DNA from: Escherichia phage HermannAdler_Bas98
Direction: 5' to 3' (one strand)
DNA: 64,000 nt
Sequence record: PQ850608.1
Under the pieces are notes generated by a model that was not told where the DNA came from, did no database searches, and saw nothing but the letters and a program-made list of their open reading frames with translations. The translations under genes were made by a program, and so were the position numbers. Shown here one piece after another: positions 1-60,575 of this stretch (its first letter is position 1; the number at the start of each line of letters is the position of its first letter).

Positions 1-1428
1 ATGTACCAGTTGAATCCTGCTTTAAAAGAAGTCTGGAAGACAAAAGCGCGATACAAAGTAATATACGGCGGTCGTGCATCTTCCAAATCGCACGATGCCG
101 CTGGTTTTGCTATTTATTTGGCGGCAAACTTCAAATTAAAATTCCTTTGCGTTCGACAATTCCAAAACAAGATTTCTGAATCTGTATATACTCTATTAAA
201 AGACAAAATAGAGATTTCTGATTTCAAAGATGAGTTCAATTTATTAAAGAACTCTATTGAACATAAAAGAACTAAATCTGAATTTCTATTTTACGGTATC
301 GCACGTAACGTTGATGAAATCAAATCAACGGAAGGTGTTGACGTCCTTTGGCTGGAAGAGGCGCACGCGCTTACTGAAGAACAGTGGGACATTATTGAGC
401 CGACAATCCGTAAAGAAGGGTCAGAAATATGGATCATCTTTAACCCTGATGAAGAGGCCGATTTCGTCTACCAAAACTTTGTTATGCGACCACCGAAGAA
501 TGCCATAGTTAAAAAGATAAACTGGCAAGACAACCCATTCTTGTCGCAAACAATGCTGGATGTTATCGCAGGCATGTACGAGCGCGACCCGAAAAAGGCA
601 GAGCACGTTTATGGCGGCGTGCCGAAGACTGGCGGCGATAAATCTGTAATCAACCGTGCATTCGTTAAGGCCGCTCTTAATCTCCACAAACACCCTACGC
701 TGGGCTGGAGTTTGTCAGGGTCTAACCGTATAGGATTTGACGTAGCGGACGATGGCGACGACCTTAACGCCACTGCATTCGTCACAGGAAACGTATTGCG
801 CGGCATCAAGACGTGGGAAGGTCTGGAAGATGAATTGTTGAAATCGGCAAGCGGAGTTTGGAAAGATGCGCTTACATTTGGCGCTTCTATAACTTATGAC
901 GCCATCGGTGTCGGCGCTTTTGCTGGTTCAAAATTTGATGAACTAAACGAGTATGCAATACATGAAAATCCATCATTTCCAAGAATCGAATTTAATGCGT
1001 TCAACGCGCAAGGGTCTGTTGATGATCCTGATGACGTTTTTCTTGAGCTACCACACGTTGAAATACTCAATAAAGACCATTTCGCAAACATAAAAGCGCA
1101 AAAGTGGACTGAAATTGCAGAGAGATTCAGAAAGACATACGAATATGCAACTGGGCAAGCCGTATATCCGACTGATGAATTGATTTCAATCGACACCGAT
1201 GGTATACCGGAACTTGGGATTCCAGCTTGGACTACTGAAGAGATTGAGACGTTTCTTTTTGAGATGTCAGCGCCGCGCAAAGATACGTCTGTTCTTGGCA
1301 AGTTCAAAGTTGAATCCAAAAAGGATATGGCAAAGCGTGGAGTCAAATCACCTAACAAAGCGGACGCAGCAATCATGGCATTGATGAAACCAATCGTTGC
1401 AGCATCCGGCTTCTTCTCTAACCTTTAA
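1..1428 (+). CDS. terL: Terminase large subunit (may be 5'-truncated by window edge)
   Basis: 475 aa; N-terminal P-loop-like GGRASSKSH; immediately upstream of portal gene; typical packaging-module position. Confidence 0.8.
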   Translation: MYQLNPALKEVWKTKARYKVIYGGRASSKSHDAAGFAIYLAANFKLKFLCVRQFQNKISESVYTLLKDKIEISDFKDEFNLLKNSIEHKRTKSEFLFYGIARNVDEIKSTEGVDVLWLEEAHALTEEQWDIIEPTIRKEGSEIWIIFNPDEEADFVYQNFVMRPPKNAIVKKINWQDNPFLSQTMLDVIAGMYERDPKKAEHVYGGVPKTGGDKSVINRAFVKAALNLHKHPTLGWSLSGSNRIGFDVADDGDDLNATAFVTGNVLRGIKTWEGLEDELLKSASGVWKDALTFGASITYDAIGVGAFAGSKFDELNEYAIHENPSFPRIEFNAFNAQGSVDDPDDVFLELPHVEILNKDHFANIKAQKWTEIAERFRKTYEYATGQAVYPTDELISIDTDGIPELGIPAWTTEEIETFLFEMSAPRKDTSVLGKFKVESKKDMAKRGVKSPNKADAAIMALMKPIVAASGFFSNL

Positions 1429-1431
1429 CAA

Positions 1432-1671
1432 TCAAAGCATTCCGTGCTGAAGGTCAAGCTTTCTTGCGGCAAACGACCTGGCACGGAATCGCTTACCCGC
1501 TCTCACCGCCTGCCGAATCTTCTTTTGCATACACTTACGGTCAAAATCGTTGCGGTCAACGGCTTCGAGTAAATCCCGACGCAAAGCACCTAGTGTCGCC
1601 TTTTCGGATAATTCTACGCCCAGCGCGGCTGCAACGTCTTTCAAAACATCGAGTTCGGTTAACGTTCTCAT
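1432..1671 (-). CDS. Hypothetical protein, antisense to structural module
   Basis: 79-aa ORF, 4-bp overlap with upstream minus-strand ORF 1668-2084; basic C-terminus; no recognisable motif. Confidence 0.35.
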   Translation of the reverse strand: MRTLTELDVLKDVAAALGVELSEKATLGALRRDLLEAVDRNDFDRKCMQKKIRQAVRAGKRFRARSFAARKLDLQHGML

Positions 1672-2084
1672 TTGATGATCCCCTTGATGTCTGATTCTGC
1701 CATAAAGATTGGAGTGCCGCCGCCAGGAACAATCGAGCGCGTTACTTTGTCGAACATATCGTTCTCTTCAACTTGAATACGATAAAATTTATTTTTGGAT
1801 GAAGATGGGCACAATCCAATAAATTTACCAATGCCGCGAACGCATTCATCTTCAAAGTATACTGTTTCACCTTGAATGGATTCGATGTTTTCAACCGGAT
1901 ACACCTTGCGACCTAAAAGCCACTCATCCATGGTCGCCTGCAACACGTTTCGCGCATCCAAAATCCAAGGGTCAACTGTGGCGCCTTCATATCGCGAAGC
2001 AGTGGCTTTTGCCAGTTCTTCATATTCGCATACGTTAACGACTTCGCCGTTGTGCAAGACGACAAATACAATTGTTGTGCTCAT
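1668..2084 (-). CDS. Hypothetical protein, antisense to structural module
   Basis: 138-aa ORF on opposite strand between terminase and portal; AT-rich divergent region 2085-2246 upstream. Confidence 0.4.
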   Translation of the reverse strand: MSTTIVFVVLHNGEVVNVCEYEELAKATASRYEGATVDPWILDARNVLQATMDEWLLGRKVYPVENIESIQGETVYFEDECVRGIGKFIGLCPSSSKNKFYRIQVEENDMFDKVTRSIVPGGGTPIFMAESDIKGIIK

Positions 2085-2179
2085 TTCAATCTCCTTTCGT
2101 TTGGTTAACTAAAATATAACTCAAAATGATACAAAAGCAAAATATTTTATGAACTATTTATGATCACCATACATATCAT

Positions 2180-2208
2180 TTGCTTACAAACACATGAATA
2201 TTTATAAT
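2180..2208 (+). promoter_or_regulatory. Sigma70-like promoter TTGCTT-N17-TATAAT upstream of portal gene
   Basis: -35 TTGCTT at 2180-2185, 17-nt spacer, -10 TATAAT at 2203-2208, followed by RBS AGGTGG and ATG at 2247. Confidence 0.6.
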
Positions 2209-2246
2209 ATAGATTGATTCCCTTTCACTGTCAGGTGGCGTTAACA

Positions 2247-4622
2247 ATGAAAATTCTTGGCATAAAACTCTGGGAGAAGACGCAACCAGAAGCCGAACCA
2301 GCGGAGATGCCGCCAGGCGACCCATTGGCACCGTTTGAACGCCTTGAAAGGCGCGGCAGCGGTCAACGCTGGGAAAAGACTGAAAGCAATCGACCGACCT
2401 TTAAAACGGTTGATGACTTCCCTTTATATGAGCCTGATATTAATGGCGATGGTGTTGCAATCATAAAAGGTCGTTCAGTCGATTCCGCAACAGTATCCAA
2501 AAAGGTTATGGATAATGCCTTAAAGAACATCAGTTCAGAAGGGCAAGTCAACCCATACACAGTACCTATTCAACTTCAAAACTGGTATTTGTCACAGTCA
2601 TTCATCGGCTATCAAGCTTGTGCCATCATCGCACAGCATTGGCTGGTGAACAAGGCGTGTTCCATGGTAGGCCGCGATGCGGTCCGTAAAGGTTGGGAAG
2701 TCAAATCCAGTTCTGAGTCAGAATTGTCAGTACAGGCAAGCGAACGCCTAAAGCAAATTGATAAAGAATTTAATATCAAAGAGCACTTAGTTGAAGCCGA
2801 ACGATTCAAAAATATTTTTGGTATCCGCGTCATCATATTTGATGTGCGTAGCGATGACCCAGAATATTACAGCAAGCCTTTTAACATTGATGGCGTGACA
2901 AAGGGGTCTTATAAGGGAATCATTCAGGTTGACCCTTATTGGATGATGCCGTTTCTGACGTCTGAAAACACAGCAGACCCTGCATCACAGCACTTCTATG
3001 ACCCAGAATATTGGGTAATCAGCGGACAACGTTATCATCGCAGCCACCTCATAATCTTGCGCAACGATGAGCCAGCCGATATTCTCAAGCCGACTTATAT
3101 TTACGGCGGCATTCCTCTGACTCAGCAGATTTATGAACGCATCTATGCCGCTGAACGTACCGCCAACGAAGCGCCATTGCTGGCGATGTCCAAGCGTACA
3201 ACGACGCTGCGGACCGACGTTGACAAGGCTATTGCCAATGAGCGGTCTTTTGCAGAACGTCTGATGATGTGGATCAAGTACCGCGACAACTATGCAGTCA
3301 AAGTGCTTGGCCAAAAAGAAGAGATGGACCAGTTTGACATCAACTTGTCAGACTTCGACAGCATCATCATGAACCAGTACCAGCTGGTGGCCGCAATCGC
3401 AAAAGTTCCGTCGACAAAACTGTTAGGGACGTCACCTAAAGGCTTTAACGCCACTGGTGAGTTCGAGATGGTCAGCTATCACGAAGAATTGGAAACTTGT
3501 CAGCAGCACGATTTGACGAAGATTCTGGACCGTCACTATAAAATCCTTTTGAAATCTGAAGGTGTTGAAGTCGACGTTAAAGTGGCATGGGAGCCAGTTG
3601 GTTCACTTACTGCTACTCAGCTTGCAGAGATTAACGACAAACGAGCGAATACTGGTAAGACTCTCATTGATGCTGGCGTCATCTCCCCTGATGAAGAGCG
3701 CGACCGCATCAAGGACGACAAAAACAGCGGCTACAACCGTCTGCCGGAAGATGCAGCGGAAGAAACCCCAGGGATGTCTCCAGAGAACATGGCGTTGCTT
3801 GGCAAGTCTGCTGGTGAAGTGCTGCAAGGTAAGGCTGATATTGAACAGGCTAAGGCTGATGTTGTCAAGATGGGCGGCCAGTTCTATAGCGAGACTGGTA
3901 TCATGCCGGAAGGTGCCGCGCGCGGTGAGTTGGCAGAAAACCCTGACAGGGCACCAGTTGAGATTAACATGGATGATACCGATGACGAATCAAGCCATCA
4001 CGTTGATGTCCTAACGCAACTGAAAGAAGGTCTGGAGGGTATTGCTGACTATTACCTTAAAGAAGGTCAGGATGTGGATTTTGACCCTCAAAAAGATGCA
4101 AGGTCGGTGCAACCGTCTACGCTTCCAAGCGTAAAAGGAAATGTCGTAAACTTGCGACACAATGTAGGGAAGATGGATGCCGCATCGCTGCCTAAGATGA
4201 AGTTGCACGGGATGATTCTTGGTATTGAGAATCCTCGCAACAGCATTCGCAGGGGCAACAGCCTTGATGGTGAATGGGCAGTTAAGATGCCGCACCATTA
4301 CGGATTTATCAAAGGCACCAAGGGCGCTGATGGTGATGAAGTCGACTGCTTTGTTGGACCAAATATGAAGTCGCCTAAAGTATTCATCATTAACCAAAAT
4401 GATAATTATTCTGGCGAATTTGATGAACACAAGTGTATGCTTGGATTTGATTCAGCAGAAGAAGCGAAAGAAGCTTATCAGGCGTCATTTGGTAACGGTT
4501 GGAACGGATTTGACTCAATCCACGAATTGGATGTCAACTCATTCAAGGAGTGGTTGAAGGGTGATTGCTCTCAAGCATATGGAGCACTCAACAATCCTAC
4601 TAATTCACCGAAGCAAGGTTGA
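2247..4622 (+). CDS. Portal protein with extended C-terminal domain
   Basis: Large ORF directly after terminase; start refined to Met12 of track ORF behind RBS AGGTGG; about 790 aa is longer than typical portals, C-terminal roughly 180 aa looks like an extra domain. Confidence 0.7.
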   Translation: MKILGIKLWEKTQPEAEPAEMPPGDPLAPFERLERRGSGQRWEKTESNRPTFKTVDDFPLYEPDINGDGVAIIKGRSVDSATVSKKVMDNALKNISSEGQVNPYTVPIQLQNWYLSQSFIGYQACAIIAQHWLVNKACSMVGRDAVRKGWEVKSSSESELSVQASERLKQIDKEFNIKEHLVEAERFKNIFGIRVIIFDVRSDDPEYYSKPFNIDGVTKGSYKGIIQVDPYWMMPFLTSENTADPASQHFYDPEYWVISGQRYHRSHLIILRNDEPADILKPTYIYGGIPLTQQIYERIYAAERTANEAPLLAMSKRTTTLRTDVDKAIANERSFAERLMMWIKYRDNYAVKVLGQKEEMDQFDINLSDFDSIIMNQYQLVAAIAKVPSTKLLGTSPKGFNATGEFEMVSYHEELETCQQHDLTKILDRHYKILLKSEGVEVDVKVAWEPVGSLTATQLAEINDKRANTGKTLIDAGVISPDEERDRIKDDKNSGYNRLPEDAAEETPGMSPENMALLGKSAGEVLQGKADIEQAKADVVKMGGQFYSETGIMPEGAARGELAENPDRAPVEINMDDTDDESSHHVDVLTQLKEGLEGIADYYLKEGQDVDFDPQKDARSVQPSTLPSVKGNVVNLRHNVGKMDAASLPKMKLHGMILGIENPRNSIRRGNSLDGEWAVKMPHHYGFIKGTKGADGDEVDCFVGPNMKSPKVFIINQNDNYSGEFDEHKCMLGFDSAEEAKEAYQASFGNGWNGFDSIHELDVNSFKEWLKGDCSQAYGALNNPTNSPKQG

Positions 4623-4623
4623 T

Positions 4624-5475
4624 ATGGCTTTTAAAGCTTCGAAAAAACGTGAACGCCGCTTACCCGATAGAGTCGGGCGCGGCAGTCCGATAATCCCATC
4701 CAACGCAATCGCGATGGCCTATCGTCGTGAGATGAAAGGTCTTTGCTATGCGATGATTGACGACTATCAAGAAGGAATTGCTGAGTGGCTTGAAAAGAAG
4801 CAGGTAAAAAAATTCTTTGCGCAAGACTCTGCTGATTCAACTTTTCAAACCTTGATGAAGCGCCTTCAACTGAAATGGGCAAAAGCATTCGCCCGTGTCG
4901 GGTCAAAGATTGCCGCAGATTTCATCAAGTCAGTTGAAAAGGGCGCGACTTCTGCTACATTTGCAAGTCTTAAATCTGCAGGAATAGAAGCGCCAAAAGC
5001 CACATATAATAAATTCGTTGAGAACACTCTTAAAACAAGCGAGACGTTCAACACGACTTTAGTGACTAAGGTTGGCGAGGATATTCACAACAGGGTGTAC
5101 GAAGCGGTGATGCTTTCGCTGACTTCGCCAGACCCAGCGCAACAAGGCACGTCCGGCATTCAGGCGGCATTAAGGCATGTAAAACACTTCTCTGCAAAAC
5201 GCGTAGACCTTATCGCCAAAGACCAAACGAGCAAACTTTATTGCGTATTAAGTGATGAAAGAATGCGACAGAATGGCGTTGAGGAATTTGAGTGGGCGCA
5301 TTCAGGAGCAGGAAAAGAGCCGCGAATATCGCATGAGCATGTCGATGGGATGAGATTCAAGCTTGATGACAAACGCTTATGGGAAGTAGGTGGAGAACTT
5401 AAGTTCAAAAAGGGTGACATCGGTCCTCCTGGATGGGCGATACACTGCAAGTGCAGAAAAATACCAATTATCTGA
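4624..5475 (+). CDS. Head morphogenesis protein (Mu F / SPP1 gp7-like minor head protein)
   Basis: Position immediately after portal with 1-nt gap; size about 283 aa; family call by gene order and general sequence character. Confidence 0.55.
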   Translation: MAFKASKKRERRLPDRVGRGSPIIPSNAIAMAYRREMKGLCYAMIDDYQEGIAEWLEKKQVKKFFAQDSADSTFQTLMKRLQLKWAKAFARVGSKIAADFIKSVEKGATSATFASLKSAGIEAPKATYNKFVENTLKTSETFNTTLVTKVGEDIHNRVYEAVMLSLTSPDPAQQGTSGIQAALRHVKHFSAKRVDLIAKDQTSKLYCVLSDERMRQNGVEEFEWAHSGAGKEPRISHEHVDGMRFKLDDKRLWEVGGELKFKKGDIGPPGWAIHCKCRKIPII

Positions 5476-5482
5476 GGTCATT

Positions 5483-6403
5483 ATGACGATACCAATCAAC
5501 ACATTCCCTCTATCTGGACAAACTCCAGTCTTGCCTGCGGTGTATGCTAATGGCTTGGCAATTGTCTCAGAATTCACTTCTGATAAAAACTTGATTGTTC
5601 CACTGAGCCCGCCGCTTGCATCAGGGTATAACTCAGTAGGTCAATTCTTTATGATTGGAAATGATGGCGATTCGACCAGCAAGCCTAATCTGACATTGTC
5701 TGTACCTAAGATGGACATCACAGACGTTCAAACTGGCTTGACTGCATCAACAATCACCATTGCTTTTGGAGAAGCGGTGATTATAGGAATGGAGTCTGGA
5801 GGGTCCAAGAATGCTGTCGCCGTTAAGGTAGTCAAATCCATCGACAACCAATACACGTTACCAGCTGCGACGGCTTCCGTTCTCGGCGGCGTCAAAATAG
5901 GAAGCGGAATAAGCGTCGCAGGTGACGGTACAATTAGCGTCACCCAATACTCATTGCCGATTGCGTCAGCATCTACTTTAGGCGGCGTAAAGGTCGGTAC
6001 AACTCTATCAATTGATGGTTCCGGTGTGCTTAACGCAGCGGAAAGCACCGTCCAGAATGCCACGAACAGTGTTAGCAATCCTCCAACCACTTTGGTTAAT
6101 CTGGCGACCTTAAACCTTCCTGCAGGAAAGTGGCTTGTGACGGCAAGTCAGTTGACTGTCGCGACAGCAGGAATTCAAGCGAATACCGGAATTACATCCA
6201 AATTGTCAACAAGCGATTCAGATATTACGGATGATGCATTTACGATGTCAGCTGGCATTCGGGCTGCAGGTCGTTTCGGCGGCAATATTCCAACAAAGAT
6301 AATTACTCTTGCCGCTCCTGGCGATGTGTATCTAAACTATCAATGCACAGATGCGTTGACATCTACCGTTTACGGACAGATCACCGCAATCAAGCTGAAC
6401 TAA
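5483..6403 (+). CDS. Structural protein with Gly/Ser/Thr/Val-rich internal repeats
   Basis: Internal repeated segments (SVLGGVKIGSGISV / STLGGVKVGTTLSI); RBS GAGGT before ATG. Confidence 0.45.
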   Translation: MTIPINTFPLSGQTPVLPAVYANGLAIVSEFTSDKNLIVPLSPPLASGYNSVGQFFMIGNDGDSTSKPNLTLSVPKMDITDVQTGLTASTITIAFGEAVIIGMESGGSKNAVAVKVVKSIDNQYTLPAATASVLGGVKIGSGISVAGDGTISVTQYSLPIASASTLGGVKVGTTLSIDGSGVLNAAESTVQNATNSVSNPPTTLVNLATLNLPAGKWLVTASQLTVATAGIQANTGITSKLSTSDSDITDDAFTMSAGIRAAGRFGGNIPTKIITLAAPGDVYLNYQCTDALTSTVYGQITAIKLN

Positions 6404-6579
6404 AGAGGAAGTTATGCAAAAGATTATTCAGTCACGTTATGTTAAAGTGCGAAATATTAATTGCAACTCTTTGCTTTCTTGGAAATGGGCCGTTTACGAC
6501 TCGATGTTAATTGGCGTTTTAGTTGCAGGAGTGCTATTTAATATTCACTGAATTCATCGGCAAAGGATTGCCGCGAGTT

Positions 6580-6870
6580 TTATACGTATAATGACGTATC
6601 ATCCGTATCAAGTAAGTTATTGTTTTCAAAAGAATCTTACGGATGATACGGATGATACGCGTTGCCGCCGTACTATATAGGAATTCAAATAAATTAATTT
6701 AAAATTATATATCTAATTTAATTTTATTTTTTTATAAACTCTTATATATGAAAAGTATCCGTATCATCCGTATCATCCGTAGCACACCAGTGATAGCGCG
6801 GCTTATACACCGATACGGATAAAAATACGCCTCATTTTATCCGTATCATCCGTATCACACTAATAAAGGC
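6580..6870. repeat. Iteron array flanking AT-rich spacer (copy A of a duplicated element)
   Basis: Multiple direct and inverted copies of CCGTATCAT / GGATGATACGGATGATACG around an AT-rich core (AATTAATTTAAAATTATAT...TTTTTTT); homologous to 58900-59170. Confidence 0.7.
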
Positions 6871-6914
6871 GCGGCTATATTGGTTGTTATACATATTCAA
6901 ACCATAATTATTGT

Positions 6915-6943
6915 TTGCCTAAGTTTTTTTCATTAGATATAAT
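6915..6943 (+). promoter_or_regulatory. Sigma70-like promoter TTGCCT-N17-TATAAT upstream of scaffold/capsid genes
   Basis: -35 TTGCCT 6915-6920, 17-nt spacer, -10 TATAAT 6938-6943; RBS GAGGGTGG then ATG 6973. Confidence 0.6.
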
Positions 6944-6972
6944 ACACAATACTTATTTGAGGGTGGATGCGA

Positions 6973-8388
6973 ATGCAAACGGCACGCGAAATTGACAAAA
7001 ATGGATTCTTGACGATTATGGGTTGTCCAATTTCGTCATTTGGCATTTTTGATTATTCTGCTGGTCAAGTCGGTCTTGATGGTGATCCGAATCGCATCGT
7101 AAAAGTCTATCGCCCTGAGTCAGCGGTGAAAGACCCCGAAGCGATAGATTCATTCAAAAATATCCCTTTCATCGACAATCACGAAATGCTTTCTGGATTT
7201 GAAGGTGATGAGGATAACACAGCACCCGAAGAGTATGGAGTTGATGGCGTTCTGACTGGCAATGTTTATTATGACAAGCCATGGATGCGCGGCGACCTTA
7301 AAGTGTTTAGCCGTCGTCTGAAGAAGGCCATTGATTCTGGAAAGGTTGACTTGTCTTTGGGCTATGACTGTGAATTCATCATACAGTCTGGAGAGTTTGA
7401 CGGGCAGCCGTATGAAGTGGTGCAGACAACTCTTCGCGGCAACCACATTGCTCTCGTGGACGTTGGTCGAGTACCAGGTGCACGGGTGCTGGATGGTCGT
7501 TGCTTTGACCATCTTTGTTTGACGACTGTAACACCATCCAACGAGGATTTAGACATGCCAAAACCGTTAAAAGGTAAAGCGCGTGATAATGCTGTTGAAC
7601 AGCTGAAATCACTGATCCCTGCGCTCGAACAATTTCTGAACGAAGAGAGTACTGAAGCTGCTCATCAGGACGAAGTTGAAGTGAAAGCAGAAGAGAAGGA
7701 CTCAACCGAAAATCGTGAAGAAGTAATGGTTGATCCAGAAGTCAAGGCAGAAGCAGAAGAAACCCCAGAAGGTGAAGAGAAGTTTGAAGTTGAAACTGAA
7801 TCTCACGCTGGCGGCGAACTTCCGCAATTGATCAGCCAAATCGAAGCACTTATTGCAAAACTGAAAGGTGGCGCGGTAGGTGATGAAGAAGAAGTTGAAG
7901 CCGAAGTCAAAGACGAAGAAGAAGTTGAAGTCAAGGCTGAAGATGTATCACCTTGCGACAAAGCTGAAGATGTGGTTAGCGGCCTGCAAAACAGCAACGT
8001 AAAGGGGGCTTCGGTCGAAAAAGATGACAAACCGACAAAAGCGGCGAAAGCGTCGCCAGGTCCAGCAAAAGGGGAACACTCAATGGCATCTGATTCAGCA
8101 GTTGCTGCTTTCTACGCTGATTCTGCTCGTAAGAATAGCCTCTACCAGCGCCTGTCTAAAGTTGTTGGTGCCTTTGATCATGCAACTATGGACTCCAAGT
8201 CCGTAGCGAAATATGGCGCTAAAAAGTTAGGCTTGAAGTGCGTTGATGGTGCTGAGTTTGACGTGGTGGATAATTATCTGCGCGGCGTTGAGCACGGTCA
8301 AAAACAGCGTGTAGTCGCAAAACAAAAGGCCGCTGCGGATTCTGCAGCAACTGACGAAGCATTTGAAGCTTGGTTGAAAGGGGAATAA
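6973..8388 (+). CDS. Scaffold-like / prohead-associated protein with acidic Glu/Val/Lys-rich repeat region
   Basis: Globular N-terminal domain followed by low-complexity acidic repeats (EEVEAEVKDEEEVEVKAED); located just upstream of capsid genes. Confidence 0.5.
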   Translation: MQTAREIDKNGFLTIMGCPISSFGIFDYSAGQVGLDGDPNRIVKVYRPESAVKDPEAIDSFKNIPFIDNHEMLSGFEGDEDNTAPEEYGVDGVLTGNVYYDKPWMRGDLKVFSRRLKKAIDSGKVDLSLGYDCEFIIQSGEFDGQPYEVVQTTLRGNHIALVDVGRVPGARVLDGRCFDHLCLTTVTPSNEDLDMPKPLKGKARDNAVEQLKSLIPALEQFLNEESTEAAHQDEVEVKAEEKDSTENREEVMVDPEVKAEAEETPEGEEKFEVETESHAGGELPQLISQIEALIAKLKGGAVGDEEEVEAEVKDEEEVEVKAEDVSPCDKAEDVVSGLQNSNVKGASVEKDDKPTKAAKASPGPAKGEHSMASDSAVAAFYADSARKNSLYQRLSKVVGAFDHATMDSKSVAKYGAKKLGLKCVDGAEFDVVDNYLRGVEHGQKQRVVAKQKAAADSAATDEAFEAWLKGE

Positions 8389-39422: not shown

Positions 39423-39442
39423 TTTGTTTCCTTAATTAAATA

Positions 39443-39658
39443 TTATTGATTAATTACTGTGTTGTCTTCGTCCTGTTTCTTTTCAGGAGCGGGTGTGACA
39501 ACTTCAAATTTAGGTTTGGGTAATTCACCTTTAGCGCCTGGGACTTCAACGACAATCTTTTTGTCAGGCTCAACAGGATTTGGAACTTCAAATTTGATTG
39601 TGTATCCTAATACAACAAGAAGCACTAAACCGATTACCGCTACCCAGGCTTTGTTCAT
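39443..39658 (-). CDS. Small membrane-anchored Pro/Lys/Glu-rich protein
   Basis: N-terminal TM (AWVAVIGLVLLVVLGY) followed by Pro-rich extended segment; 71 aa. Confidence 0.45.
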   Translation of the reverse strand: MNKAWVAVIGLVLLVVLGYTIKFEVPNPVEPDKKIVVEVPGAKGELPKPKFEVVTPAPEKKQDEDNTVINQ

Positions 39659-59170: not shown

Positions 59171-59364
59171 CCAGCAGCGGCTAAGTCATTGATTTGCATA
59201 GCAAGCGGCGAAAGGGATGGATTTCTTTTATACGTATCAAACAGTACACCACGCACCACGGTCCGCAATCCTATTTGCAATATGATTTGTGTACGTTTAT
59301 AGCCATAATGAACATCAATCTGCACTTGAATATAATGTCCATCCATTGTATAATTCACACTATT

Positions 59365-60575
59365 AATTTGCACTATGGGATTTTGCACTATGAGTCAAGA
59401 TTATGTAGCGATGCCTGAAGACTTTGAAGACCCGCGATTCGCAGAGCACAATCAGGCTTTATTCGATGAGTTCATTGACCTTGTTATTCAGGGTCATGAC
59501 ATGCGCGCAGCTTTTGCACTAGTATTTGGAATGGAAGTTGCAACGGATAACTACACTGGCCAGCGAATCCTTTGCACGCAACGCAATCCATACTACAAGA
59601 TGCGCTTCAAAAAGCGTATGGAAGAGATGCCACTCAAGGATTTGTGGAGCGTAAAAGGTGCAATTCACAATTTGGTCAAGCTTGTGCGTGATCCAGAAGT
59701 CGCGGCGTCAGCCAAGCTTAATGCTATTCGTGAACTGAATATCATCTACGGCATCACGATGATTGATGAAAACGGCAATAGTAAAATGGGCCGTTCTATG
59801 GACGATTTCTACAAGGATTTTGGAGAGGCTGCCAAAGAAGGAGAGCAATTCTCCCGCCACTAGCCAATTTGCACTATAAAACGGCCCTAGAACACATGTT
59901 CTCCACTTCTAGGGCCATCGGTAATACGACGGGGAAGGTCGCACCCATAAACGCGTTAGAAAGTGTATTATTATAAGTCATCTTTTAGTCGCTTTACGTA
60001 ACAATTTACGACCTTCAACCGTCCAATCGAACGACTCCACCAGCAGATTCGCACTATAACCTAAGACGATGCGCCCTTTCTCGTTATCGACCCGCCAACA
60101 AGTCTCGAATAGCATTCGATTTGCACTATTAACTATTGCCGCAACGCGCGTAGGGTAAGCGCAATTTGCACTATGGTCGTAAAGGGATAAGGTGCGACCA
60201 CTTCCGATGGACAATGTAGCGATGAGAATAAGCGTATTCATAAGCCACCAATTTGCACTATGAAAAGCGACCCCGAAGGGCCGCCATTCGATTAGATAAT
60301 CTGGAAGGTGTAGGACTTGTTGCCGAACTCGAAGTTCAAGCGTCCAGCTTCTTTAAGCTTCATGCGGAAGCGAATGTGCTTGCTATCCGGTAATCCCAGC
60401 GCGGCGAAGGCTACGCGGACCGATTTGAACTCGCCTACACCCTCGACCATAACGCCGTTACGGGTGAGACGCTTTTGCGCCACTTCCTTATTATCCCAAC
60501 TTTTTGCAATACCTTCGCTATTCGAACGGCGATGGGAAGGAGTTCCATTTTGCACTACGCAATTTGCACTATCGT
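59365..60575 (+). repeat. Dispersed cluster of 11-bp motif ATTTGCACTAT (at least 8 copies, same orientation)
   Basis: Copies read near 59365, 59381, 59867, 60046 (ATTCGCACTAT variant), 60120, 60166, 60251, 60547 and 60559; several lie inside predicted minus-strand ORFs. Confidence 0.6.
59390..59863 (+). CDS. Hypothetical protein
   Basis: 157 aa from Met6 of track ORF; start codon overlaps an ATTTGCACTAT motif copy. Confidence 0.45.
   Translation: MSQDYVAMPEDFEDPRFAEHNQALFDEFIDLVIQGHDMRAAFALVFGMEVATDNYTGQRILCTQRNPYYKMRFKKRMEEMPLKDLWSVKGAIHNLVKLVRDPEVAASAKLNAIRELNIIYGITMIDENGNSKMGRSMDDFYKDFGEAAKEGEQFSRH

Follow-up and report, generated by a model that had tools for sequence, protein, structure and literature searches.

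An antisense gene pair between the terminase and portal genes of Wifcevirus phages: probable remnant of an inherited operon

Gene layout and coding signal

The stretch of DNA analysed here (64,000 nucleotides (nt) of Escherichia phage HermannAdler_Bas98, record PQ850608.1; called the window in the following) carries two small minus-strand genes, orf79 and orf138, between the genes for the large terminase subunit (TerL) and the portal protein. Position 1 of the window is the TerL start codon, as in the record of Escherichia phage HansTraber_Bas100, to which the first 5 kilobases (kb) of the window are 97% identical. In total 28 records of the genus Wifcevirus match at least 80% of this 5-kb query at 91-97% identity. 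Wifcevirus comprises virulent myoviruses of Escherichia coli and Shigella with genomes of about 68 kb. The record of phage kaset assigns the genus to the family Lindbergviridae, and the paper on the BASEL collection describes it as distant kin of the Pseudomonas genus Pbunavirus (PMC11990801).

An earlier note on this DNA had described two overlapping minus-strand open reading frames (ORFs) for proteins of 138 and 79 residues between terminase and portal, the smaller one with a basic C-terminus, both facing a divergent AT-rich promoter region. This description is correct. The coordinates are exactly as claimed (Table 1), residues 43-79 of the orf79 product have a net charge of about +10, and the region between orf138 and the portal gene has a guanine-plus-cytosine (GC) content of 27.8% compared to 46.1% for the whole window, with two predicted promoters inside. 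The two reading frames share a 4-base overlap (ATGA), and the convergent genes orf79 and terL have their stop codons 3 nt apart. In the public records both genes are labelled hypothetical protein.

Table 1. Features of the terminase-portal locus and other features of the window (E, expectation value; bp, base pairs; an arrow indicates reading on the minus strand).
Feature	Position	Strand	Remarks
TerL, terminase large subunit	1-1428	+	flanking gene; Pfam Terminase_3, E 3e-37
orf79 (= vB_Eco4M-7 gp34, Bas100_0002)	1432-1671	-	79 residues; from the ORF list; four-helix model
Stem-loop after the TerL stop codon	1435-1494		within the last ~19 codons of orf79; plus-strand RNA -27.7 kcal/mol, z -2.67
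orf138 (= vB_Eco4M-7 gp35, Bas100_0003)	1668-2084	-	138 residues; from the ORF list; two-domain model
Divergent regulatory region	2085-2246		162 bp; 3 variable sites among 11 Wifcevirus genomes
Shine-Dalgarno site of orf138	2096->2091	-	AAGGAG; conserved in cross-genus alignment; ATG at 2084
P_orf138, predicted sigma-70-type promoter	2140->2113	-	-35 TTGCTT (2140->2135), 16-nt spacer, -10 TATATT (2118->2113)
P_portal, predicted sigma-70-type promoter	2180-2208	+	-35 TTGCTT (2180-2185), 17-nt spacer, -10 TATAAT (2203-2208)
Second leftward promoter-like site	2234->2206	-	CTGACA-17-TATATT; 10/12 consensus matches; -10 overlaps the P_portal -10 by 3 bp
Portal	ATG 2247 to 4622	+	flanking gene; Phage_portal_3, E 4.5e-88; start as in public records
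InPase domain of the portal C-terminus	about 4190-4560		PF18823, E 4.4e-46
Non-coding gap upstream of the head-maturation-protease gene	6552-6967		416 bp, AT-rich
Strong promoter-like sequence in this gap	6915-6943		TTGCCT-17-TATAAT
Predicted small terminase (Bas100_0092)	59,354-59,860	+	unannotated; see text

Both ORFs are genuine genes under purifying selection, and the doubt raised in the earlier note, that they might turn out to lack a coding signal, was not confirmed. Among 11 Wifcevirus genomes the ratio of nonsynonymous to synonymous substitution rates (dN/dS) is 0.057 for orf79 and 0.077 for orf138. The variable sites fall mostly on the third codon position, with 6, 0 and 27 sites at positions 1, 2 and 3 of orf79 and 10, 4 and 53 sites at those of orf138.

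For the larger protein, published work on vB_Eco4M-7 gives direct information. When its gp35, the counterpart of orf138, carried a HiBiT tag, the luminescence during infection was higher than with the untagged phage (PMC11074155), and therefore the 138-residue protein is made during infection. On strain ATCC 43888 the signal of the gp35-HiBiT phage was about 3.1 million relative light units (RLU) over the untagged control, and that of a phage with a tagged portal protein about 10.8 million; on Ec134 the corresponding values were about 384,000 and about 188,000 RLU (PMC11074155; the excess over the untagged phage was taken by subtraction of mean differences in Supplementary Table 2 of that paper). 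The tagged phage formed 336 plaques and the untagged one 332 (PMC11074155). In mass-spectrometry lists of phage preparations gp34 and gp35, as well as their equivalents in ECML-117, are missing (PMC7048862), which is weak evidence that the two products are not virion components.

The antisense block in related phages

The earlier note had regarded the pair as a moron-like cassette inserted between two genes which are normally adjacent. Our data support neither an insertion nor a moron. Both proteins are encoded in all 28 Wifcevirus records with 93-100% identity, so that the distribution within the genus is not patchy, and the sister lineages have a larger homologous block. The composition of the cassette is native, because its GC content of 46.9% corresponds to the 54th percentile of the window and its dinucleotide signature to the 58th. 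Similar DNA or protein could not be found in 5,426 complete E. coli genomes or in 72,556 plasmids. The synteny comparison proposed in the note, with relatives lacking the insertion, was carried out and gave the opposite picture: the nearest relatives carry more antisense genes at the same site.

Between TerL and portal, all four related genera that were checked and three metagenomic relatives have an antisense block. It comprises 14 genes in Pbunavirus 14-1 (gp04-gp17), at least ten in Pbunavirus LBL3, five in Kylevirus (Pantoea phage Kyle, gp22-26), five in Tabernariusvirus (Pseudomonas phage tabernarius), four in Carpasinavirus (Xanthomonas phage XcP1) and four to six in the metagenomic relatives L008, L021 and L022/L023. 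BcepF1 is the sole relative examined which instead has two small forward genes at this site. A DUF2786/DUF7168 protein is encoded in the blocks of 14-1 (gp08), XcP1 (gp03), Kyle (gp22), L008, L021 and L022, and a DUF6011 protein in those of 14-1 (gp12) and tabernarius (00028). Because these proteins recur, we regard the blocks as homologous across the genera and not as sets of genes that came to fill one site independently.

In the TerL tree Wifcevirus is the sister of L008 (90% TerL identity), within a clade which also includes L022, Kyle and L021. These four relatives have a protease gene between the orf138-like and the orf79-like gene and a DUF2786/DUF7168 gene adjoining TerL, together with one or two small ORFs in the block. 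The extra block genes of the relatives have no homologue anywhere in the 64-kb window, and homologues of the DUF6011 and DUF2786/DUF7168 proteins, the methyltransferase and YIP, all of which 14-1 encodes in its block, were not found there either. Since Wifcevirus is nested in a clade that keeps the larger block and the extra genes have no homologues in the window, gene loss in Wifcevirus is the most parsimonious history. Most parsimoniously, too, the protease gene would have been removed cleanly enough for orf138 and orf79 to overlap now by ATGA.

The protease of the relatives (L001:6414-6959, L008:5411-6019, L021:6426-6998, L022:6444-7004) is of the trypsin-like serine type and has about 190 residues, with a lipoprotein signal (MKK...LAGCS) and the catalytic motif GMSGG. 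Judged by these motifs, these phages would encode a lipoprotein protease that acts in the periplasm.

As far as architecture and evolutionary history are concerned, we are confident that the cassette was inherited vertically and is a reduced remnant of the antisense operon which this lineage has between TerL and portal. Of the earlier view, what remains is a separate unit, divergent, non-structural and with its own promoter region; that this unit is a moron does not remain.

The two protein families and their possible functions

According to profile comparisons the orf138 product is a distant homologue of gp17 from Pbunavirus 14-1 and a distant member of the phrog_5124 family. A profile of the enterobacterial members matches gp17 among the ORFs of the fetched loci (hmmsearch, E 4e-11), and the alignment of the orf138 family with gp17 by hhalign has a probability of 94.8% (E 5e-8, 27% identity over 115 columns). 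PHROG 5124 is matched by orf138 with E 2e-4, by Kyle gp26 with E 1.8e-4 and by gp17 itself with E 1.6e-88, which also reflects how strongly orf138 and gp17 have diverged. Both proteins, gp17 being ORF16 of the PB1-like phages, are encoded by the first antisense gene, divergent from the portal gene, and they are similar in length (133 and 138 residues) and in isoelectric point (pI 4.7 in both cases). They differ in that gp17 lacks a segment of about nine residues between the two domains, has a longer C-terminus and is followed by other downstream neighbours. In total the position as first gene of the block, divergent from portal, is kept by the family members in the window, Kyle, L008, L021, L022/L023 and 14-1. 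The homologues in the blocks of Kyle, L008, L021 and L022 show 26-60% identity to orf138.

The orf138 family is tiny. Only four real clusters were recovered when 1.84 billion cluster representatives were scanned in full with the orf138 profile in HMMER; two large proteins with E about 1e-3 were regarded as spurious. With a broadened profile 17 clusters were obtained from a set of 5.8 billion sequences. In BFVD the significant matches were limited to the protein itself, Kyle gp26 and a further protein without a name, the remaining matches being weak and non-specific. Profiles of both families, orf138 and orf79, gave only chance-level matches to chains in the PDB, and hhalign comparisons of both with every gene of the tabernarius, XcP1 and BcepF1 blocks revealed no further homologues. 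Weak Pfam matches of CarD_TRCF_RID (E 0.17), WGR (E 0.11) and Ubiquitin_TPR1 (E 0.02) were below every cut-off and have not been used.

In the AlphaFold2 (AF2) model of orf138 (mean predicted local distance difference test score, pLDDT, 80.5; predicted template modelling score, pTM, 0.73) residues 4-42 form a beta-beta-alpha-beta unit at the N-terminus and residues 74-137 a small beta-barrel of the SH3/Sm/Tudor-like kind at the C-terminus. The protein is acidic, as is the whole family (pI 4.5-4.9, net charge -7 to -11), which argues for binding of a protein rather than of a nucleic acid.

For orf79 the AF2 model shows four helices (pLDDT 75.5, based on a shallow alignment). Its charge changes along the chain, from acidic in the N-terminal half to strongly basic in the C-terminal one. 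The helical bundle may weakly resemble the helix-extension-helix DNA-binding domains of the SAP/HeH type, known from Siz1, PIAS1 and the N-terminal domain of Rho; the Pfam profiles SAP, HeH and Rho_N did not match any of six orf79-family members at E up to 5. Homologues of orf79 occur solely in the enterobacterial branch, with 22-67% identity in Kyle, L008, L021 and L022, and hhalign against all genes of the 14-1 block found no homologue in Pbunavirus.

A basic tail combined with a weakly SAP-like fold could enable orf79 to bind DNA, and the place next to portal is conserved in every member of the orf138 family. One could therefore think of accessory proteins for packaging or head assembly, for instance one that recognises DNA in the manner of TerS or one that acts as a chaperone for portal, and the earlier note had itself considered that the pair might prove to be standard small terminase or packaging genes. 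We consider this improbable. A real homologue of the small terminase subunit (TerS) is encoded elsewhere. The 14-1 protein gp76 matches the TerS of phage E217 (PDB 7UXE) with E 2.5e-125, and a plus-strand ORF of the window is 41% identical to gp76 (E 2e-36). By this homology the ORF, labelled 'hypothetical protein' in the Bas100 record, is the small terminase gene. Because the TerS homologue is a separate gene, orf79 and orf138 are not TerS. On the circular map about 9 kb separate this TerS gene from TerL, which is downstream of it; in E217 the distance between TerS and TerL is about 58 kb (PMC9611059). Another candidate for TerS, Bas100_0095 with 208 residues, had no match in the PDB and was discarded, the true homologue being at about 59.4 kb. 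Further arguments against a packaging function are the location of the genes on the opposite strand with their own promoter, the absence of their products from the mass-spectrometry lists mentioned above, and the fact that Pbunavirus packages with homologous TerL and TerS although it has no orf79. In addition, no similarity of either protein to a packaging family and no match to a solved TerS was found.

As functions of such a moron-like insertion the earlier note had named toxin-antitoxin and superinfection exclusion, and an abortive module was considered here as well. It would indeed suit a toxin-antitoxin pair that the two genes are small, translationally coupled and transcribed as a unit of their own, and that one of them encodes a basic and possibly DNA-binding protein. 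However, searches of PADLOC (E up to 10), Pfam and NCBIfam identified no toxin or antitoxin family and gave only sub-threshold matches at chance level. Moreover, orf79 and orf138 do not form an obligate pair, because in Kyle, L008, L021 and L022 they are separated by the protease gene and in Pbunavirus gp17 occurs without an orf79 homologue. The presence in the whole genus and in its sister lineages, the native composition and the lack of counterparts in E. coli genomes and plasmids do not fit such a module either. Exclusion proteins usually have a membrane-spanning segment or a lipobox, but neither of the two proteins has one: the Kyte-Doolittle hydropathy over 19 residues reaches at most 1.28 in orf138 and 0.91 in orf79, inspection of the sequences showed no lipobox, and in the AF2 model the hydrophobic N-terminus of orf138 forms beta-strands within a folded domain. 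Finally, the phage is strictly virulent, and tagging of gp35 was without cost in plaque number. Taken together, these data make a toxin-antitoxin, abortive or exclusion function very improbable.

The third function suggested in the note was anti-defence: at least one of the two proteins would block an immunity system of the host, as the products of accessory early genes often do. The orf138 product is small, acidic and intracellular, the two genes are promoter-proximal and probably encode non-virion proteins, and the gene content of the block varies between genera as it does at accessory loci. It also fits that Wifcevirus phages are considerably resistant to restriction in K-12 (PMC11990801). 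Nevertheless, the searches of PADLOC, Pfam and NCBIfam gave nothing that supports this function, and we judge it to be unlikely. The experimentally defined anti-defence island of Pbunavirus has been described as a single locus comprising 14-1 gp80-88, which is located on the other side of TerL (PMC13307970). Furthermore, orf138 is fixed in its position, vertically inherited across genera and under purifying selection, unlike counter-defence genes with their fast turnover.

Transcription signals and a proposed role of the operon

The intergenic region contains two predicted promoters, P_orf138 and P_portal, in back-to-back arrangement. To study their conservation we aligned the intergenic regions between portal and orf138 from the window, L008, Kyle, L021 and L022. 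Both hexamers of P_orf138 and their spacing are conserved in these five genus-level lineages, the version of L021 being TTGACT-16-TATAAT, and the hexamers of P_portal are invariant or nearly so across the genera. In the record of 14-1 a sigma-70 promoter is annotated at the equivalent site upstream of portal. We give little weight to the second leftward site (2234->2206), whose conservation is limited to the window and L008; it could be an auxiliary site or a match by chance. If this site were real, binding of RNA polymerase there and at P_portal would be mutually exclusive.

We initially considered the near-invariance of the intergenic region to be exceptional. This idea was dropped, as most intergenic regions of Wifcevirus are equally conserved: in a comparison of three genomes 0-3% of the columns in intergenic DNA are variable versus 9.9% in coding DNA. 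Since its conservation is typical of the genus, the region 2085-2246 should be seen as ordinary regulatory DNA only. One exception to the intergenic conservation is found at Bas100 39425-39521, with an insertion or deletion of about 310 bp; kaset carries an additional small gene there. In the gap upstream of the head-maturation-protease gene (Table 1) 5% of the columns are variable among the three genomes.

At the other end of the operon, the stems of the predicted stem-loop are invariant in 11 genomes though they cover synonymous sites, whereas the loop and the flanks vary. Compensatory changes were not seen in these genomes, and there is no clear T-run. The hairpin may be a candidate for a bidirectional terminator or for a 3'-end stabiliser of the two convergent transcripts. 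An Rfam scan of window positions 1-8000 detected no known RNA in the cassette region.

Overall we favour the reading that the pair is the reduced, vertically inherited form of a leftward operon of the early or host-takeover class, belonging to the Pbunavirus-Wifcevirus lineage within the Lindbergviridae; on balance it seems somewhat better founded than its negation. Transcription would start at P_orf138, back to back with the portal promoter, translation would start from the strong Shine-Dalgarno site with the ATGA overlap coupling orf138 to orf79, and the transcript would probably end at the hairpin at the junction of orf79 and TerL. We infer the early class because the Pbunavirus counterpart is referred to as 'early genome region' and because the promoter resembles the host sigma-70 type. 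The Pbunavirus region encodes gp12, which binds the alpha-subunit of RNA polymerase and inhibits transcription, and gp11, a YfiN-binding peptide (PMC8085984, PMC10914365).

The 14-1 region gp04-gp17 resembles the Wifcevirus pair in location, orientation, the divergent layout of promoters towards portal and in the anchor gene. It differs in having 14 genes instead of two, and its DUF6011 protein (gp12), DUF2786/DUF7168 protein, methyltransferase and YIP (gp11) are missing from Wifcevirus, while orf79 is restricted to the enterobacterial branch. The blocks of Kylevirus, L008, L021 and L022 are more similar, with an orf138-like gene in first and an orf79-like gene in a later position, both of them homologous to the Wifcevirus genes, and with conserved promoters; their additional genes are those for the lipoprotein protease, the one or two small ORFs and the DUF2786/DUF7168 protein.

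Several points speak against an operon of this class. The term 'early' is derived from the analogy to Pbunavirus and from the promoter consensus, a temporally resolved transcriptome of Pbunavirus could not be found in the literature, and the portal promoter looks equally sigma-70-like. The strand alone is no guide to timing, because the minus-strand block upstream of TerL includes a tail-fibre gene. A role of orf79 as regulator of these promoters is weakened by the fact that Pbunavirus keeps the promoter layout without having an orf79 homologue.

With regard to biochemical roles our proposals are tentative, and we would not be surprised if they proved wrong. Based on its model, orf138 could be an acidic intracellular protein which putatively binds another protein via the small SH3/Tudor/KOW-like barrel. 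The product of orf79 would be a putative nucleic-acid binder made up of a SAP-like bundle of helices and a basic tail, and it may act on the AT-rich divergent promoter region of its own operon. A more far-reaching idea, which we regard as a long shot, is that orf138/gp17 represents a previously unrecognised core early factor of the whole family Lindbergviridae. It would be an acidic Tudor/KOW-like protein docking on the host transcription machinery or another host hub, and in the enterobacterial branch it would be paired with the SAP-like orf79, which would bind the divergent promoter region and so balance leftward transcription against that of the structural genes. If this were true, such a factor could be one reason for the very fast infection cycle that has been reported for Wifcevirus.

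Some observations concern neighbouring genes. The fusion of the portal protein to a C-terminal InPase domain is also found in the portals of L008, L021 and L022. Just upstream of TerL, beyond the limits of the window, a minus-strand gene (L003:1119-1349, Mansfield gene 020) encodes a protein of 76 residues which corresponds to gp32 (7.8 kDa) of vB_Eco4M-7. This protein was among the better-scoring ones in mass spectrometry of phage preparations, with a score of 1002 and 55% coverage (PMC7048862). In Pbunavirus the block on this side of TerL is the anti-defence island gp80-88.

What is new here is modest: the homology link to gp17, the history of gene loss, the conserved back-to-back promoters and the location of TerS. 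The locus is of a known kind and its two products are conserved hypothetical proteins, of which phage genomes encode many; the value of the analysis is a corrected annotation together with an evolutionary reading. Since orf138 is tied to gp17, a result obtained in the coliphage or in the Pseudomonas system transfers to the other, and gp17 is conserved in P. aeruginosa phages which are widely used for therapy. The conserved back-to-back promoters are defined targets for engineering, for which a synthetic-genome platform exists in the case of vB_Eco4M-7 (PMC11074155). The site between terminase and portal in Wifcevirus appears as the minimal remnant of a family-wide operon and not as an acquisition hotspot with toxin or defence cargo. 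Should the two proteins turn out to act in early regulation or host takeover, they would join the small number of core non-structural proteins which the coliphage and Pseudomonas members of the family have in common.

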